A DNA stretch of 21,959 nucleotides, taken from positions 1 to 21,959 of IMG/VR virus record IMGVR_UViG_3300045988_117647; one strand, 5' to 3'. The stretch's first letter is position 1. Every line of letters begins with the position of its first letter. Made by a program: the position numbers and the translations under genes. Positions 55 through 19,804 of the stretch are shown one piece after another. The DNA is from a virus (Duplodnaviria > Heunggongvirae > Uroviricota > Caudoviricetes). The notes beneath the pieces were generated by a model. The model was not told the DNA's origin. It made no database searches and saw nothing but the letters and a program-made list of their open reading frames with translations.

Positions 55-198
55 TACAACGGGAAAAAATTTACGTATCCGGTCGCTGATGAGTGGAGTT
101 GGTTTTATTGTTATTCAGAGCAATAAACATCTGATTTAATTTGTTGCATAATAGTAAAATTGCTGTTTATCTACATGTGGTAACTATTGATAATTATG

Positions 199-226
199 TT
201 GCTAATAATGTGTGCAAATTTATACT
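199..226 (+). promoter_or_regulatory. Possible sigma70-like promoter for the island-1 ORF (-35 TTGCTA 199-204, 16-nt spacer, -10 TATACT 221-226)
   Basis: Hexamers read directly; the implied leader to the ATG at 243 is very short and would overlap the AAGGTG RBS, so the call is weak. Read-through from IS1 is an alternative. Confidence 0.2.
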
Positions 227-242
227 GAAAAAGGTGAAAACG

Positions 243-2075
243 ATGAATGATATCTTTGTTCTTACAAGGGAAGAGCTTGAAACACTAGATTATAGTGTTT
301 TTATGCATATACCAGTTACATTTCATGCACATAAAATAAAAAAATATCTGGATGGGATTGCTGAATCATCAGAAAACCCCAAAGAGAAAAAATTAGCATC
401 TCTTTTTGGTATGCTATATAGTTTCAATTTGCAAGTTGTTAACAACACTCCATCATTTGAACCCCAAATGATTTGGGGTAATAAAAGATCAATATTGCCT
501 GAAGATTTTGATGAGCAGGTGAATGATTGTCTTTTATATGTTTCTCAAAAAATAACCAATCCATTTTTGTTATCAAGAATATATGATGTTGTTTGGTGTA
601 ATAATCGGAAAAATAAAGACGTGGCAATTAAAGCAATTGATTCCTATGCTGAAATGCTAAATATAGCAATTGAAAGACTAATAATAAAAAACGAAAGCAT
701 GGATGAAAGTGATTTAAATTGCTTTATTTTTGCTCGTGATTATATTGCTAGGGCTTTGCACATTAATAAAATGGTCTACCCTAGAAAATCAGAAGGAAAC
801 ATGGCGATTAAAAATGCCATTCATTCTCTTTATAGTATTCAAAATGAAAGATTAATCTTTGAAGGTTTCAATAATTTGACTTGGTTTATGGTGCGTGATT
901 TTGATGGGGATAATCTGCAGTATGCGGAAAATGCTGAGAAGATGGCTGAGCAGCATAAAGATAAAAAATATTATGATGCTGTAAAATCACTTTATATGAC
1001 AAGTGCAGTTATTTATGAAAAAAATGGTGAGTCTGAACGTGCCAAGAGATGTAAACTGGCATCTGCAAATATTACTATTAAAGTTGCAACAGATCGACCT
1101 GATAATATGGGTAAGATCTCTTGGTTAAGAACAGCTATCTCTGAATTAAGACAGTACGGTGGTGATAGCCAACAGATAGAAGATTTAAAGGAACAACTTG
1201 CTAATTTGAGAGAAGAAGTAAGGAGTGAATATGTCACTTTAAGCCATTCTATTGATATTAGTGACTTGGTTGCTGAAAGTGAAAAAAAACTGACGGGGCG
1301 TTCTTTGCCCGATATATTCAAAGTTTTAATGCGTGAAACACCGATTGAAAATATTGAAAGCATGAGGGAGCAAGTTTTAAGATTATCAGAAAAAAGTTTA
1401 TTCTCTAGTTTTGTTGGAACAGAAATTAATGATGAGAGTGGGCGTAAGGTATATACAATCCCGCCGTTGGATAATAAAAAAGATATGAGTGATGATGTTG
1501 TTATTGATCAATATCTAAGAAATTTCGAGATTACTCATAAGATTTTTGTAAACGGTGTCTTTGAACCTGCTCGCTATGTACTTTCTCAAGAACATGGCTT
1601 GACGTTGTCAACATTCGTTAAATTAGTTACAACTAGTCCAATTGTCAAGCCGGAGTTTAGGGAGATTTTTAATTTGGGCTTTTACAAATTATGGCAGGGA
1701 GATTACATCAGTGCAGCTTATCTTTTAATACCACAAATGGAAGGTATGGTTCGTTATTATTATGAGCTTAGTGGAAAGGATGCTACTAGATATTTGGATA
1801 AGGGATTAGAGGAGTCAACAAGTATTTCTCAGCTTCTAGATAAATGCAGAGATGATTTGGAAAGTATCTTTTCTAAGAATCTTGTTTTAACTATCGATGT
1901 TCTTTTTAATAGAAAGAGTGGGGCAACCTTAAGACATAAATTAGCACATGGTAATTTATATACTAATGCTTGTTACGATGAAACAACGACATATGCATGC
2001 ATCCTGATTTTCTTTCTGTGTGCTTATCCTCTCCTACCATATTTTGATACTGTATTTGAACAGGGCTCTGTTTGA
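243..2075 (+). CDS. Hypothetical 611-aa AT-rich cargo protein; candidate anti-phage or abortive-infection protein with C-terminal R-x4-H-G (HEPN-like) motif RHKLAHG at nt 1932-1952
   Basis: Long uninterrupted ORF (track 141-2075) in visibly AT-rich DNA. I take the ATG at 243 (MNDIFVL...), preceded by AAGGTG at 231-236, as the start. No Walker A/B or TOPRIM motif seen, so it is not an Old-type ATPase. Position is the old/tin locus of P2. Confidence 0.8.
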   Translation: MNDIFVLTREELETLDYSVFMHIPVTFHAHKIKKYLDGIAESSENPKEKKLASLFGMLYSFNLQVVNNTPSFEPQMIWGNKRSILPEDFDEQVNDCLLYVSQKITNPFLLSRIYDVVWCNNRKNKDVAIKAIDSYAEMLNIAIERLIIKNESMDESDLNCFIFARDYIARALHINKMVYPRKSEGNMAIKNAIHSLYSIQNERLIFEGFNNLTWFMVRDFDGDNLQYAENAEKMAEQHKDKKYYDAVKSLYMTSAVIYEKNGESERAKRCKLASANITIKVATDRPDNMGKISWLRTAISELRQYGGDSQQIEDLKEQLANLREEVRSEYVTLSHSIDISDLVAESEKKLTGRSLPDIFKVLMRETPIENIESMREQVLRLSEKSLFSSFVGTEINDESGRKVYTIPPLDNKKDMSDDVVIDQYLRNFEITHKIFVNGVFEPARYVLSQEHGLTLSTFVKLVTTSPIVKPEFREIFNLGFYKLWQGDYISAAYLLIPQMEGMVRYYYELSGKDATRYLDKGLEESTSISQLLDKCRDDLESIFSKNLVLTIDVLFNRKSGATLRHKLAHGNLYTNACYDETTTYACILIFFLCAYPLLPYFDTVFEQGSV

Positions 2076-14088: not shown

Positions 14089-15954
14089 ATGAGCACAAAA
14101 TTCAGAACCGTTATCACCACTGCCGGTGCAGCAAAGCTGGCAGCGGCAACCGCACCGGGAGGGCGGAAGGTCAACATTACCACGATGGCCGTCGGGGATG
14201 GCGGTGGTAAATTGCCTGTCCCGGATGCCGGACAGACCGGACTTATCCATGAAGTCTGGCGACATGCGCTGAACAAAATCAGCCAGGACAAACGAAACAG
14301 TAATTATATTATCGCAGAGCTGGTTATTCCGCCGGAGGTGGGCGGTTTCTGGATGCGAGAGCTTGGCCTGTACGATGATGCGGGAACGTTAATTGCCGTG
14401 GCGAACATGGCCGAAAGTTATAAACCTGCCCTTGCCGAAGGCTCAGGGCGTTCGCAGACCTGCCGCATGGTCATCATCGTCAGCAGTGTGGCCTCAGTGG
14501 AGCTGACTATTGACACCACAACGGTGATGGCAACGCAGGATTACGTTGATGACAAAATTGCAGAACATGAACAGTCACGACGTCACCCTGACGCCTCGCT
14601 GACCGCAAAAGGTTTTACTCAGTTAAGCAGTGCGACCAACAGCACTTCTGAAACACTGGCTGCAACGCCGAAAGCGGTAAAGGCCGCCTATGACCTTGCT
14701 AACGGGAAATACACTGCACAGGACGCCACCACAGCGCGAAAAGGTCTTGTCCAGCTCAGTAGTGCCACCAACAGCACGTCTGAAACGCTCGCCGCAACAC
14801 CAAAAGCGGTAAAAGCAGCATATGACCTTGCTAACGGGAAATATACCGCACAGGACGCCACCACAGCGCGAAAAGGCCTTGTTCAGCTCAGTAGCGCCAC
14901 CAACAGTGATTCGGAAACGCTGGCAGCAACACCAAAAGCGGTGAAGTCTGCCTATGACAATGCTGAAAAACGTCTTCAGAAAGATCAGAACGGTGCGGAT
15001 ATTCCTGATAAAAGATTATTCCTGCGCAATATTGGTGCAACAAATTCAACAACCATGTCTTTTAGTGGTGGTACAGGATGGTTCAGGCTGGCAACTGTAA
15101 CCATGCCACAGGCCAGTTCCGTGGTTTACATAAGTCTGATTGGTGGTGCTGGATATAATGTTAACTCCCCTATGCAGGCTGGTATATCTGAACTTGTTCT
15201 TCGTGCGGGAAATGGAAATCCAAAAGGTCTTACTGGTGCGTTATGGCGACGGACATCGGTTGGATTTACTAATTTTGCATGGGTGAATACATCCGGTGAT
15301 ACCTATGATGTTTATGTTGAAATAGGTAATTACGCCACAGGTGTTAATATTCAGTGGGATTATACCAGTAACGCCAGCGTAACGATTCATACATCGCCAT
15401 CTTATACAGCGAATAAACCAACAGGTCTTACAGATGGAACTGTATATGTAATTTACAGTTCGCACATTAAACCGACTGCTGCTGATGTTGGGGCGTTGTC
15501 ATTATCTGGAGGTCAATTGAATGGTGCACTGGGCATCGGAACATCCAGTGTTCTTGGCGGTAACTCAATTGTTTTGGGTGATAATGACACGGGCTTTAAA
15601 CAAAATGGTGACGGTAATCTGGATGTTTATGCTAATAACGTTCATGTTATGCGCTTTGTCTCCGGTAGCATTCAAAGTAATAAAACCATAAATATTACGG
15701 GTCGTGTTAATCCCACAGATTACGGTAACTTTGATTCCCGCTATGTCCGGGATATCCGGCTTGGTGGTGCTGCCACATACAAACCTGCGAACAATGGCAT
15801 GACATGGACACATCAGGCACCGTCCGGGTGTGTATATTCCGGCATTATTATTCAGGATACCGGCTCAAACTCTGCCGATAACATTGGTGGCGTATATTAC
15901 AGACCGGTGCAGAAATACATTAACGGGACATGGTATAACGTGGCGCAGGTATAA
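14089..15954 (+). CDS. H: Tail fibre protein (P2 gpH-like but shorter, 621 aa), with internal tandem repeats and an AT-richer C-terminal part
   Basis: Position after I; GAGG RBS; 44-aa repeats containing SATNS..ETLAATPKAVK, which resemble the phage tail-fibre repeat motif; composition changes after about 15000. Confidence 0.85.
   Translation: MSTKFRTVITTAGAAKLAAATAPGGRKVNITTMAVGDGGGKLPVPDAGQTGLIHEVWRHALNKISQDKRNSNYIIAELVIPPEVGGFWMRELGLYDDAGTLIAVANMAESYKPALAEGSGRSQTCRMVIIVSSVASVELTIDTTTVMATQDYVDDKIAEHEQSRRHPDASLTAKGFTQLSSATNSTSETLAATPKAVKAAYDLANGKYTAQDATTARKGLVQLSSATNSTSETLAATPKAVKAAYDLANGKYTAQDATTARKGLVQLSSATNSDSETLAATPKAVKSAYDNAEKRLQKDQNGADIPDKRLFLRNIGATNSTTMSFSGGTGWFRLATVTMPQASSVVYISLIGGAGYNVNSPMQAGISELVLRAGNGNPKGLTGALWRRTSVGFTNFAWVNTSGDTYDVYVEIGNYATGVNIQWDYTSNASVTIHTSPSYTANKPTGLTDGTVYVIYSSHIKPTAADVGALSLSGGQLNGALGIGTSSVLGGNSIVLGDNDTGFKQNGDGNLDVYANNVHVMRFVSGSIQSNKTINITGRVNPTDYGNFDSRYVRDIRLGGAATYKPANNGMTWTHQAPSGCVYSGIIIQDTGSNSADNIGGVYYRPVQKYINGTWYNVAQV
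14611..14964 (+). repeat. Three tandem copies (two complete, third partial) of a 132-bp coding repeat inside H
   Basis: Copies start at 14611 and 14743 and are near-identical at DNA level; the third (from 14875) diverges after about 90 bp. Confidence 0.85.
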
Positions 15955-15957
15955 TTT

Positions 15958-16485
15958 ATGCAGCATTTAAAAAATATTACGGCGGGTAATCCAAAAACGG
16001 TTGAACAATATCAATTGACAAAGGGCTTTGATGTTGTCTGGTTTTTTACAGAAGATGGTAAGAACTGGTACGAAGAACAAAAGTATTTTGCTGATGACAC
16101 GATAAAAATAGCGTACGACAAAGATAATATCATCCGCTATGTGGAAAAGGATGTGACAGCTATCAGACCGGATGGATTAAGTGTGGTTGAAGTGGCGGAT
16201 ATTACTGCTAACCGACGTGCGGATATTTCAGGGGGCTGGATGTTTAAGGACGGCAAAGTGATTAAACGCATTTATACGGCAGAGGAATTACAGCAGCAGG
16301 CAGAAATTCGGAAAGCCAGACTTCTTGCAGATGCTGAATCCGTGATTTTGCCGCTGGAGCGCGCGGTCAGACTGAACATGGCAACAGAGGAGGAGCGCAC
16401 ACGGCTGGAGGCTTGGGAACGCTACAGCGTTCTGGTCAGTCGTGTGGATCCTGCAAATCCTGAATGGCCGGAAATGCCGCAATAA
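15958..16485 (+). CDS. G: Tail fibre assembly protein (P2 gpG-like), 175 aa
   Basis: Length and position immediately after H. Confidence 0.8.
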
Positions 16486-16520
16486 GTTGTATGAACTCTG
16501 GTGTGAGCTTACATATCTAT

Positions 16521-16560
16521 GGCACAGAGTAAAGCCTAATCTGACAGTCCGCTCTGTGCC
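16521..16560. repeat. Inverted repeat GGCACAGAG-n22-CTCTGTGCC at the boundary between G and AT-rich island 2
   Basis: Perfect 9-bp arms read directly; no T-run follows on either strand, so it is not called a terminator. Confidence 0.4.
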
Positions 16561-16738
16561 AAAAGCGGGCGTTGATCACATGGGCTATGCTAACCCATTA
16601 TAACAGTGTAACAGAGCTACCCACGATTACTCCCGGCCTCTAAAGTTTGCTACATAATAAAGAATCATTCCCTTTAATCTGATCTTAGCGGTATAGTATC
16701 TGGTGACCAGTAAGATAATCACCGACACTACAATCATG

Positions 16739-16766
16739 TTGATTTGCATTGTGTTTAGTCTAAAAT
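16739..16766 (+). promoter_or_regulatory. Candidate sigma70 promoter for the island-2 genes (-35 TTGATT 16739-16744, 16-nt spacer, -10 TAAAAT 16761-16766)
   Basis: Hexamers read directly, about 50 nt upstream of a strong RBS (AAGGAGG 16803-16809) and the ATG at 16816. Confidence 0.35.
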
Positions 16767-16815
16767 TGTGGTGCGAAAAGACCAATGAAAGTTATTGATA
16801 ATAAGGAGGAATCAA

Positions 16816-17598
16816 ATGTCAGGAATAAGATGGTTGGATAAAAAAGATTTAATTCTTAAAGGAATAAATGAAGGCACCTACCCAGAATCAGTTTACAAGT
16901 TCAGAACTATAGATAAAGCCAGTGATATTCTTCAAAAAAAGAATTTTACTTTTCATCAGCGGAAAATTTTAATGATCCATTTGATTGTATGCTGGATGAG
17001 GAAAAAGAATACTCTTTATCAGACTTTAATTGTTGGTTATATTTATATCAGAATGGATTAACCAAGAAGGCAAAGCAGAACTTAATAGATGTGTATAAAG
17101 AAAACAGCCAAGCATTTAATGATCTAGTTAAAAATATAAAAACAAAAGCCGTCAATGCCCATGGCATTTTATCGCTATCTAAAACTAATGAAAATATTCT
17201 TTTATGGTCTCATTATGCGGAGAACCATACCGGAGTTGCTATAAAACTCAATATTGCTAAGGATCCAGAGTTCTTTATAACCCCCCAAAACATAGTATAT
17301 GAAGCAATATATTCCATTAAATTATCTTAGAGACTCTAAAAAATCAATACTCGACACACTCTCTACGAAATCAATGGATTGGAATTATGAAGAGGAGATT
17401 AGAGTTTATAAAAGTAATATTGGAGCCTATAAGATTAAGCCAGAGGCAATAACTGATGTTTTTTTTGGTTTGAAAACGCTGGAACAGGATATTGCAAAAA
17501 TCAAAAATATATGTAGTGAAAATGGTCTAAGCCATGTGAAGTTTCATCGGGCTGAAAAAAAATATGGAGAATTTGCGCTACGTTTTAATCCTATTTGA
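16816..17598 (+). pseudogene. DUF2971-like gene interrupted by two compensating frameshifts (frame change within the A7 run at 16934-16940, then back between 17296 and 17330)
   Basis: Three ORF pieces (16795-17061, 16989-17330, 17299-17598) join into one DUF2971-like product: ...YKFRTIDKASDILQKK / EFYFSSAENFNDPFDC...LLWSHYAENHTGVAIK... / ...SMDWNYEEEIRVYKS. The first and third pieces share a frame. Family assignment is from recalled motifs. Confidence 0.6.
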
Positions 17599-17684
17599 CT
17601 TTTCTATTTAGTAGTTAAATGATAGTGCATTACGAGCCAATTAAATTTAATTCTATGGTTGTGTAGACAATAAAAGGTAACTAG

Positions 17685-18170
17685 ATGAATCAAGATGAGT
17701 TAAAAAATTTTTGTGTTGATGTGCGCGAAGCACTTGAGAAGATGACCAAAAAAGATCATTCACGGCTGTCATCTTTTGGAAATTCGAACTTTCCAGTGGG
17801 ATGCTGCGGAGATACATCGAAACTGCTTGCTTATTTACTTTATCAGCAATTCGGGATAGTCTCTGAAGTACTCGCAGGATGTTACTATGAATCTGATCAT
17901 AAGTCCCCCGCCAGCGGTCTTTCAAACGGTAATTCACATGCTTGGCTTGTCGTGGATGGAATGATTGTTGATTTGACTGCAGATCAGTTCAACGACCGGG
18001 GATATAACAATCTTCCCGTCATGATTACATCAGACACTAGGTTTCATGACCTCTTTGCCAATCGTAATGCCTTGTTTCAACCTTCTCAAGGTAATGAAAT
18101 TATTCTACCTGATATTCTAAAAATGACAGCATCACATGTGCAGCAAAGGCTTAAAGAGCGAGGTTGGTAA
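17685..18170 (+). CDS. Hypothetical 161-aa protein with Cys-His-Asp arrangement (C40/C41 in GCCGD, H85 in SHAWLVVDG, D96/D100 in IVDLTAD) suggestive of a transglutaminase-like or papain-like cysteine peptidase fold
   Basis: Clean ORF in AT-rich DNA with AAAGG RBS; the motif HAWLVVDG-IVDLTAD resembles the His-Asp segment of transglutaminase-like domains. Inference only. Confidence 0.65.
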   Translation: MNQDELKNFCVDVREALEKMTKKDHSRLSSFGNSNFPVGCCGDTSKLLAYLLYQQFGIVSEVLAGCYYESDHKSPASGLSNGNSHAWLVVDGMIVDLTADQFNDRGYNNLPVMITSDTRFHDLFANRNALFQPSQGNEIILPDILKMTASHVQQRLKERGW

Positions 18171-18487
18171 TACGGGTGCAGCAGAATCTAAAGCTGATAC
18201 TTAAAATTATATAGGAAGAGCATAAACTTATCCTAAATCTGGCTGTAATAGATCCTTTCATATATCGGCCAGATTAATATGAAGTAATCCAAATTAGTGT
18301 CTGAAAATATAATCAGCTCCATAACAATAGATTTATCGCTTAAAAATAACGTCAACATGAGGGTAGAAAACATCCCTAAAGATAAGTCTGGTCTAACCTT
18401 TGCTCCTCGCTCAAAGCAGACTGTCAGAATTGATAGCGTTTGGGCTATGTAAATTGTCAGTCGGAAAATGAGTGAGTACAAATCAGG

Positions 18488-18515
18488 ACAGGCGGGCGAA
18501 TTGCCCGCCTTTTCT
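18488..18515 (+). terminator. Rho-independent terminator (GGCGGGC-GAAT-TGCCCGCC followed by TTTTCTTTATC), plus-strand orientation
   Basis: Hairpin and T-run read directly; lies about 320 nt after the 161-aa gene and about 100 nt before FI. Confidence 0.6.
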
Positions 18516-18613
18516 TTATCTGTTGTTTCATCCACTGACCAGTCAGGTCAAATAGCGTCTCATGCTCTGCACAACAGAAAATAGCTGCACCCATTAACCA
18601 CGGAGTTAAACGG

Positions 18614-19804
18614 ATGAGTGACTATCATCACGGCGTGCAGGTGCTGGAAATTAACGACGGCACCCGTGTCATTTCCACCGTATCCACTGCCATTGTCGGC
18701 ATGGTCTGCACGGCCAGCGATGCGGATGCGGAAACCTTCCCCCTCAATAAACCTGTGCTGATTACCAATGTGCAGAGCGCAATTGCAAAGGCCGGTAAAA
18801 AAGGCTCGCTGGCGGCATCGTTGCAGGCCATCGCCGACCAGTCAAAACCGGTCACCGTTGTCGTGCGTGTGGAAGACGGCACCGGCGACGACGAAGAAAC
18901 GAAACTTGCGCAGACCGTTTCCAATATTATCGGCACCACCGACGAAAACGGTCAGTACACCGGACTGAAAGCCCTGCTGGCGGCGGAATCGGTAACCGGT
19001 GTTAAACCGCGTATTCTCGGTGTGCCGGGGCTGGATACCAAAGAGGTGGCTGTTGCACTGGCATCAGTCTGTCAGAAGCTGCGCGCTTTCGGGTATATCA
19101 GCGCATGGGGCTGTAAGACCATTTCCGAGGTGAAAGCTTACCGCCAGAATTTCAGCCAGCGTGAGCTGATGGTCATCTGGCCGGATTTCCTCGCATGGGA
19201 TACGGTCACCAGTACCACCGCCACCGCGTATGCCACTGCCCGTGCACTGGGCCTGCGCGCTAAAATCGACCAGGAGCAGGGCTGGCATAAAACGCTGTCC
19301 AATGTCGGGGTGAACGGTGTTACCGGCATCAGCGCATCTGTATTCTGGGATTTGCAGGAGTCCGGCACCGATGCTGACCTGCTGAACGAGTCAGGTGTCA
19401 CAACGCTGATTCGCCGTGACGGTTTCCGCTTCTGGGGTAACCGTACCTGCTCTGATGACCCGCTGTTCCTCTTTGAAAACTACACCCGCACCGCGCAGGT
19501 GCTGGCCGACACGATGGCTGAGGCGCACATGTGGGCGGTGGACAAGCCCATCACCGCAACGCTGATTCGCGACATCGTTGACGGCATCAATGCCAAATTC
19601 CGTGAGCTGAAAACAAACGGCTATATCGTGGATGCGACCTGCTGGTTCAGCGAAGAATCCAACGATGCGGAAACCCTCAAGGCCGGAAAATTGTATATCG
19701 ACTACGACTATACACCGGTGCCTCCTCTCGAAAACCTGACCCTGCGCCAGCGTATTACCGATAAATACCTGGCAAATCTGGTCACCTCGGTTAACAGCAA
19801 TTAA
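18614..19804 (+). CDS. FI: Contractile tail sheath protein (P2 FI-like), 396 aa
   Basis: Length and synteny with P2 FI; GGAG RBS. Confidence 0.9.
   Translation: MSDYHHGVQVLEINDGTRVISTVSTAIVGMVCTASDADAETFPLNKPVLITNVQSAIAKAGKKGSLAASLQAIADQSKPVTVVVRVEDGTGDDEETKLAQTVSNIIGTTDENGQYTGLKALLAAESVTGVKPRILGVPGLDTKEVAVALASVCQKLRAFGYISAWGCKTISEVKAYRQNFSQRELMVIWPDFLAWDTVTSTTATAYATARALGLRAKIDQEQGWHKTLSNVGVNGVTGISASVFWDLQESGTDADLLNESGVTTLIRRDGFRFWGNRTCSDDPLFLFENYTRTAQVLADTMAEAHMWAVDKPITATLIRDIVDGINAKFRELKTNGYIVDATCWFSEESNDAETLKAGKLYIDYDYTPVPPLENLTLRQRITDKYLANLVTSVNSN

Follow-up and report, generated by a model that had tools for sequence, protein, structure and literature searches.

A mobile cassette in the fun(Z) slot of a P2-like prophage joins a frameshifted DUF2971 gene to an intact gene for a predicted Cys-His-Asp enzyme

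Accessory cargo between the late genes of P2-like phages is a familiar observation. In the annotated P2 reference the slot between tail gene G and gene FI is filled by fun(Z), which has the V-operon terminator on one side and, on the other, the activator site and start point of the late promoter pF, and a defence hotspot within the P2 tail genes is already listed in a recent survey, which also reports that P2 and its satellite P4 almost never share defence genes (PMC13586616). Among the protein families relevant here, DUF2971 has been placed in the ADP-ribosyltransferase (ART) superfamily near DarT and AbiGi (PMC12522546), and Aristaios, a DUF2971 protein of Lactococcus, is a validated single-gene abortive-infection system (PMC11381338). 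We describe here the occupant of the G-FI slot in a stretch of 21,959 nucleotides (nt) from a virus record (IMGVR_UViG_3300045988_117647, positions 1 to 21,959), the whole of which we call the window. It is a cassette of two genes, A and B. Gene A belongs to a known candidate defence family and is dead in this copy; gene B is intact and encodes an undescribed enzyme associated with defence islands. The G-FI slot is a known accessory-gene hotspot and is itself not new; what is new is the lineage-specific pairing of A with B, and the B family itself. Our preferred reading, to which we would give an even chance, is that this is a mobile defence-type cassette in which A is likely the effector and B an autonomous gene co-inherited with it.

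The window is a P2-like prophage in which the portal gene Q, the terminase gene P, capsid and lysis genes, V, W, J, I, H, G, FI, FII and E follow one another in this order, in agreement with the annotation of near-identical prophages, and all of its P2 structural genes are open reading frames (ORFs). Calculated over 500-nt windows, the GC content of the G-FI slot (16751-18500) is 0.31-0.41, against 0.54-0.60 in the tail genes on either side. This drop, together with the position of fun(Z) in the P2 reference, bears out an earlier note on this DNA that had placed an AT-rich insert at the Z/fun slot. The size given there, 2.1 kb, we correct to about 1.85 kb of foreign cargo, the last ~210 nt being P2 backbone. 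The borders were set by comparing the window with the P2 reference and with TW10590, a P2-like prophage carrying different cargo: P2 backbone extends to ~16574 on the left and starts again at ~18400 on the right. Flanks without this island are present in 1027 of 5426 complete E. coli genomes and the whole island in 12 of them; the G and FI flanks are matched by 164 phage records, none of which holds this cargo (0/164); in its place they have other cargo, for example a HAD phosphatase with a NUDIX hydrolase.

The comparison with fun(Z) is one of position and kind. Both cargos occupy the same insertion slot, between G and the pF promoter, and both are non-essential, AT-rich and of lysogenic-conversion or defence type, whereas the present cargo lies on the late-gene strand and fun(Z) on the opposite one. 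Homology to Fun(Z) was not found by BLASTP (E at least 1.9 for gene A and at least 4.7 for gene B) or by hhalign (probability 0.3%), and we reject a relation to P2 Fun(Z) for both genes. The features that carry the argument are as follows.

16555-18421, + strand: mobile cassette (widest limits 16517-18421), 79-94% nt identity with non-P2 elements by blastn
16816-17598, + strand: gene A, DUF2971 / PDC-S31 pseudogene, 261 amino acids (aa) in its intact form
16934-16940, + strand: frameshift 1 in gene A, A7 where intact alleles have A8, at codon ~41 and ahead of every conserved motif (alignment to L001 and L002)
~17296-17299, + strand: frameshift 2 in gene A, one TA unit lost from TATATA, at codon ~162 (alignment to L001)
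17685-18170, + strand: gene B, intact, 161 aa, minimal transglutaminase/papain-like Cys-His-Asp enzyme
17805-17807, 17937-17939 and 17970-17972, + strand: codons of the B triad C41, H85 and D96

A frameshifted DUF2971 gene and an intact partner

Family profile tests of gene A were run on the intact allele of E. coli NCTC9008. This allele matches Pfam DUF2971 (PF11185) at 25.7 bits against a cut-off of 22, the PADLOC model PDC-S31 (PDLC04990) with an E of 6.7e-47 over residues 23-259 of 261, and also phrog_1762. The DUF2971-like gene of the earlier note is therefore real, its Pfam match lying above the cut-off, and the accompanying view that the pair resembles nothing recognised has to be given up for A, which matches both a published candidate, PDC-S31, and the family of the validated Aristaios. 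In an alignment of 30 A sequences the motifs NDPFD and WSHYA, Y162 and W190..E193xE195xR197 are invariant, in agreement with the published conserved tyrosine and ExE of DUF2971 (PMC12522546). The invariant H133/Y134, Y162 and E193xE195 fit the DUF2971 logo of the same study, a match at the level of the logo rather than a residue-by-residue mapping onto a solved ART. The AlphaFold model of A is confident (mean predicted local distance difference test score, pLDDT, 91.8) and its predicted fold is ADP-ribosyltransferase-like, nearest to Tpt1 and DarT. Searches of PDB sequences, by sequence and by profile and for both the A and B families, gave no meaningful match, the sole one being a ParB protein at E 0.61.

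Gene A thus shares with PDC-S31, DUF2971 and Aristaios the PDC-S31 model from end to end, the DUF2971 domain, the predicted ART fold and carriage on mobile elements. Unlike PDC-S31 and Aristaios, which lack such a neighbour, the A clade found here has a transglutaminase-like gene next to it. The likeness to Aristaios is one of shared domain and fold, and the copy in the window is frameshifted. DarT, which acts in abortive-infection-style defence, likewise has an ART fold of the nucleic-acid type, and its acidic catalytic motif may have a counterpart in A, but A carries large helical inserts and has no detectable sequence relation to any solved structure. A DarTG-like pair can be rejected: there is no macrodomain (DarG) here, and the sole neighbour of A is the Cys-His-Asp hydrolase gene B, with its transglutaminase-like fold. 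By analogy with DarT and Aristaios, intact A would be the likely effector of the cassette, an enzyme that modifies DNA or RNA with NAD+ once infection has occurred and so keeps the phage from replicating while sacrificing the cell.

In the window A is split into three frames by the loss of one base from an A8 run and of two bases from a TA repeat, the first upstream of the conserved motifs and the second within them. These frameshifts are the sole indels across ~11 kb aligned to NCTC9008. Because of this, and because all structural genes are open, real pseudogenisation is likelier than random assembly error, and sequencing error appears the less likely source of the two changes. With A a pseudogene, the module as found in the window cannot work as a pair; the two-gene module of the earlier note is reduced, in this copy, to an intact B beside an inactivated A. 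All 12 complete-genome copies are annotated with an A coding sequence and none is flagged as a pseudogene; in 4 of the 12, from chicken isolates (L089 1501-2277), an extra base in A gives a 777-nt coding sequence with a changed C-terminus, a second indel allele. The ratio of nonsynonymous to synonymous substitution rates (dN/dS) is 0.27-0.40 for A and 0.52-0.61 for B, and so both genes are under purifying selection, with B evolving fast.

The 161-aa Cys-His-Asp protein proposed earlier stands as described: its ORF is intact, differing at one residue from the NCTC9008 copy, and its triad is invariant. Among 134 representatives of the B family, C41, H85, W87, D96 and Q101 are 100% conserved. The model of B is confident (pLDDT 90.4), with a transglutaminase/deamidase-like fold in which C41 starts a helix (41-56), H85 lies in a strand (84-90) and D96 ends another (93-96). 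The conserved residues and the confident fold suggest an active-looking Cys-His-Asp enzyme. An exhaustive profile search places B in a family of 1700 clusters at 50% identity, nearly all of them stand-alone proteins of ~150 aa, and widespread in Clostridia, Paenibacillus and environmental Proteobacteria. None of the PADLOC and NCBIfam models matches B; against Pfam there are only sub-threshold matches (YunG at 22.5 bits, cut-off 27; DUF2026 at E 0.095) and no Transglut_core; and a Foldseek search of viral structures returned uncharacterised proteins only, with TM-scores below 0.5. With Atu2299/DUF2026, YunG, SseI, protein-glutaminase and LapG, B shares the fold, the triad arranged as Cys-helix/His-strand/Asp-strand, and a HAW...D-x-T signature. 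Some RefSeq copies of B are labelled 'transglutaminase-like domain-containing'; set against the transglutaminase/papain-like enzymes as a whole, B is a single-domain cytoplasmic protein of 161 aa with a CC dyad, below every Pfam cut-off. Judging from its modelled fold, B is probably a cytoplasmic cysteine hydrolase of the transglutaminase/papain-like kind, and may be a protein deamidase or peptidase. The idea that B is a toxin neutralised by A is rejected, as B is intact beside a broken A and stands alone in several prophages.

Linkage of the two genes and how it may be read

Among complete E. coli genomes, A and B are found in exactly the same 12. The order A then B, with a spacer of 78-86 nt, is kept in six verified mobile backgrounds: the P2-like prophage itself, a lambdoid prophage of Klebsiella variicola, an island of Serratia quinivorans beside integrase and gpA-like genes, an integrative and conjugative element (ICE) of Pectobacterium, a phage-like metagenomic element (94% nt identity), and a P4-like satellite (L202 5001-6378, a Logan ERR5464885 contig; 79% nt identity), in which the pair sits after AlpA, Ash and primase. 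The two genes diverge in parallel across these backgrounds, with identities of 71-87% for A and 76-94% for B. The occurrence of the pair in a P4-like satellite is notable given the survey of P2 and P4 defence genes cited above (PMC13586616).

The two families are also found apart. Gene A occurs without B in Providencia vermicola (60% identity), Pantoea (43%) and Aliarcobacter (34%), and with profile models of both families B was absent from 80 of 80 viral DUF2971 loci. Conversely, none of 25 viral and 72 genome loci of B-family homologues has an adjacent DUF2971 gene, the one found lying 5 kb off. At 71% identity B stands without A in Klebsiella aerogenes (L086 6001-8421), where it is followed by a DRT9 reverse transcriptase (5.9e-215). 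In that locus the ~125 nt that trail B in E. coli come after the reverse transcriptase gene, as if the latter had been inserted at the B stop codon. At 44-59% identity B follows ApeA in Providencia, lies beside McrBC in Pantoea and beside bSEFIR in Erwinia, and is alone or accompanied by small unknown genes in prophages of Citrobacter, Enterobacter and Silvania, the lone prophage copies lying near terminase genes. More widely, B-family homologues are carried by Pseudomonas megaplasmids and a few phages as well as by prophages and ICEs. When 265 neighbours from 72 genome loci were clustered all against all, no conserved partner emerged, and a general partner for the B family is accordingly rejected. 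The co-occurrence that the earlier note proposed to check is therefore borne out in that the pair recurs in five further backgrounds at 71-94% identity, but it is confined to one enterobacterial lineage, outside which the A and B families do not co-occur, and this falls short of what an obligate pair would show. The suggestion of a new two-gene system fares similarly: the pair does recur, but A is a recognised gene, the pairing is not general and an obligate system is not supported.

We therefore favour, at the even chance given above, a mobile defence-type cassette of ~1.85 kb that occupies the G-FI (fun(Z)) hotspot, ahead of both the backbone's own terminator and pF, and in which B most likely acts alone, not as the obligatory partner of A, and is here co-inherited with A as one block. 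Several observations weigh against this reading. Every verified element with an A at least 70% identical has B next to it, in the same order and at the same 78-86 nt, and this linkage spans six backgrounds in at least four named genera as well as metagenomic contigs; the P4-like satellite has hardly more of the shared block than the two genes. Such cohesion at a synonymous divergence (dS) of ~0.25-0.45 is as compatible with a functional pair as with simple linkage. Both indels in A fall in slippage-prone sites, a homopolymer and a dinucleotide repeat, and are compatible with sequencing error. As for the defence-type label, PDC-S31 is a candidate only, and anti-phage activity has been shown for no member of the B family and for none of this A clade. 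The genes directly upstream of distant B homologues do include strong AbiA, Drt8, CBASS cyclase, HEC-07 and MADS matches, but these counts have no matched background.

The alternative that survives best, though we hold it only tentatively, is that in this lineage A and B make up a true two-gene system in which B regulates A, for example by neutralising it in the manner of an antitoxin or, as a protease or deamidase, by licensing or activating the ART on infection. The conserved order and spacer in six mobile elements, the similar divergence of the two genes, their presence in the same 12 genomes, the lack of a terminator between them and the retention of just these two genes in the P4-like copy would all fit such a system; a broken toxin with an intact partner is often seen in decaying toxin-antitoxin pairs, and a DUF2971 operon variant with a papain-like-fold protein has been noted in a survey (PMC12522546). 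However, the families do not co-occur beyond this clade. Relatives of A at 60% and 43% identity lack B and a relative of B at 71% lacks A, while B pairs with unrelated effectors (ApeA, DRT9) or stands alone in prophages. A single gene is enough for Aristaios to work (PMC11381338), and PDC-S31 is entered in PADLOC as a one-gene candidate; the spacer, moreover, is the least conserved part of the cassette and contains an 8-nt indel. A broader proposal, which we likewise regard as possible but doubtful, is that the B family is a new anti-phage or defence-modulating module, recruited in this lineage as the working partner of a DUF2971 ART; the resulting two-enzyme system would then have travelled as a single cassette among P2-like phages, lambdoid prophages, ICEs and a P4-like satellite.

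It is unlikely that B has no part in defence and that A and B are unrelated passengers, B being a lysogenic-conversion enzyme of the host-directed deamidase-effector type or an anti-defence gene. Among the nearest characterised folds are indeed SseI, an effector encoded on a Salmonella prophage, and further bacterial effectors of the deamidase and cysteine-protease types; no PADLOC model matches B; and its homologues reside in the phages and other mobile elements named above, which collect anti-defence and conversion genes too. Yet B has neither a secretion signal nor an effector-type N-terminal domain, its spread in Clostridia, Paenibacillus and environmental Proteobacteria would be unexpected for host-directed effectors, and it lies directly beside a known or candidate defence gene in five enterobacterial genera. 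Least probable of all is that the whole island is decaying, non-functional cargo, a module without a current role: the two independent frameshifts in A, sole indels in ~11 kb against the nearest relative, speak for it, but B is intact with one amino-acid difference from NCTC9008, all 12 complete-genome copies have an unflagged A coding sequence (though four have the 777-nt form), dN/dS is below 1 for both genes and the P2 structural genes of the window are all open.

Borders, non-coding elements and neighbouring genes

Around and between the two genes the following features can be placed.

15958-16485: tail gene G, left neighbour of the island
16486-16574, + strand: P2 backbone after G, shared with the P2 reference and with TW10590
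16520-16529 / 16552-16561, + strand: 10-bp hairpin in the left backbone segment
16540-16566 and 18402-18428, + strand: arms of a 27-nt imperfect inverted repeat, 78% complementary
16739-16766, + strand: candidate sigma-70 promoter, TTGATT-16-TAAAAT, a weak consensus match
16803-16809, + strand: Shine-Dalgarno sequence of gene A (AAGGAGG), separated by 6 nt from the start codon ATG at 16816, read directly
17599-17684, + strand: A-B spacer, 78-86 nt, terminator-free
18171-18400, + strand: 3' non-coding tail of the cassette, with no ORF conserved on either strand (six-frame comparison, four genera)
18490-18520, + strand: rho-independent terminator, 9-bp stem with 7 GC pairs followed by a T run
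18521-18590, + strand: pF late-promoter region, Ogr-type activator site ~18521-18546 and transcription start ~18588, positions inferred by alignment from the P2 reference annotation
18614-19804: gene FI, right neighbour of the island

The extent of the cassette is given by the blastn matches of the non-P2 elements, which cover 16555-18421 at 94.4% (L200/L201), 16535-18420 in Serratia (L003), 16517-18413 in Pectobacterium (L087) and 16619-18413 in Klebsiella (L082). The block common to these elements takes in ~260 nt 5' of A and ~240 nt 3' of B. Conservation of the flanks across four genera (200-300 nt upstream and ~240 nt downstream) might be taken as the sign of a small RNA or a small protein. 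We reject this: flank identity is 77-84%, equal to the 74-83% seen at third codon positions (dS 0.24-0.47), and no ORF is conserved. Since the two identities are equal, the flanks simply belong to a block that was transferred whole. The 3' tail, also at 77-84%, is not above synonymous sites, and the A-B spacer is the fastest-diverging part of the cassette (65-72% identity, with the 8-nt indel). Rfam searches of the cassette flanks gave nothing above threshold. A sub-threshold match at 18295-18520 (+ strand) to the Salmonella small RNA STnc150 reaches 19.5 bits where the gathering score is 60, and it stops at the backbone terminator; STnc150 lies near icdA in Salmonella, with no P2 context, and the match is unsupported. 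On the opposite strand, at 16627-16785, a small hydrophobic ORF (...MIVVSVIILLVTRYYTAKIRLK...) runs antisense to the gene A leader. It is recognisable in Serratia and Klebsiella; because a stop codon interrupts the Pectobacterium copy, it is probably not a gene.

The earlier note saw the island as a self-contained expression unit, and this is partly so: the two genes form a compact unit served by a ribosome-binding site of its own, but the promoter does not rise above chance and the terminator belongs to the backbone. The strong ribosome-binding site was rightly called; it lies at 16803-16809, and its AAGGA is kept in all four aligned cassettes. The candidate promoter at 16739-16766 we reject, as a consensus scan found 12 promoter-like sites against a chance expectation of 8.3 +/- 2.4, which is no excess, and the hexamers are not kept in orthologous cassettes. 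The terminator, at 18490-18510, is genuine but lies outside the unit and is conserved in P2 itself and in TW10590 with its other cargo. As the backbone restarts at ~18400, both the terminator and the pF region are the phage's, not the island's; this backbone terminator is placed to stop read-through from the V-G late operon and from the cargo.

The 27-nt inverted repeat is the best in the region and brackets the cargo, with one arm at each junction. Both arms are P2 backbone and are present beside other cargo too, in the P2 reference and in TW10590. Of the two border segments, cassette copies in non-P2 elements retain ~85 nt on the left and ~12 nt on the right. The repeat and these border pieces may be the substrate of cargo swapping. 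In chicken E. coli isolates the insertion sequence ISEc12 (IS21 family) lies between gene B and FI (L002 5372-7674; L089 from 3543), where it parts the cargo from the pF promoter region.

Two other parts of the window stand out. Upstream of the island, in the tail-fibre gene H (14089-15954), there are three tandem copies of a ~43-aa motif (...SSATNSTSETLAATPKAVKAAYDLANGKYTAQDATTARKGLVQL...), and from ~15000 onward GC falls to 0.41-0.47, a lower value that begins in the 3' part of H and takes in gene G; this suggests that the low-GC part of H and G is an exchanged host-range module. At 141-2075 (+ strand), directly before the portal gene Q, a second AT-rich stretch (GC 0.30-0.35) holds a 644-aa ORF that matches the PADLOC candidate PDC-S39 (5.7e-85) and Pfam DUF7380, and looks like cargo of the main P2 hotspot.

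What the cassette adds

Should neither gene protect, the island would be hotspot cargo of the usual sort in which one gene has decayed. An active B would bring a family of very small protein-modifying enzymes into the set of phage-defence or defence-accessory genes, and the cassette would provide a tractable E. coli model for DUF2971 ART-type immunity, which has so far been tested only in Lactococcus. The cassette also shows clearly that a single block of cargo has moved between elements as different as a P2-like phage, a lambdoid prophage, an ICE and a P4-like satellite, and it keeps short pieces of the P2 hotspot border while doing so, which bears on how hotspot cargo is swapped.

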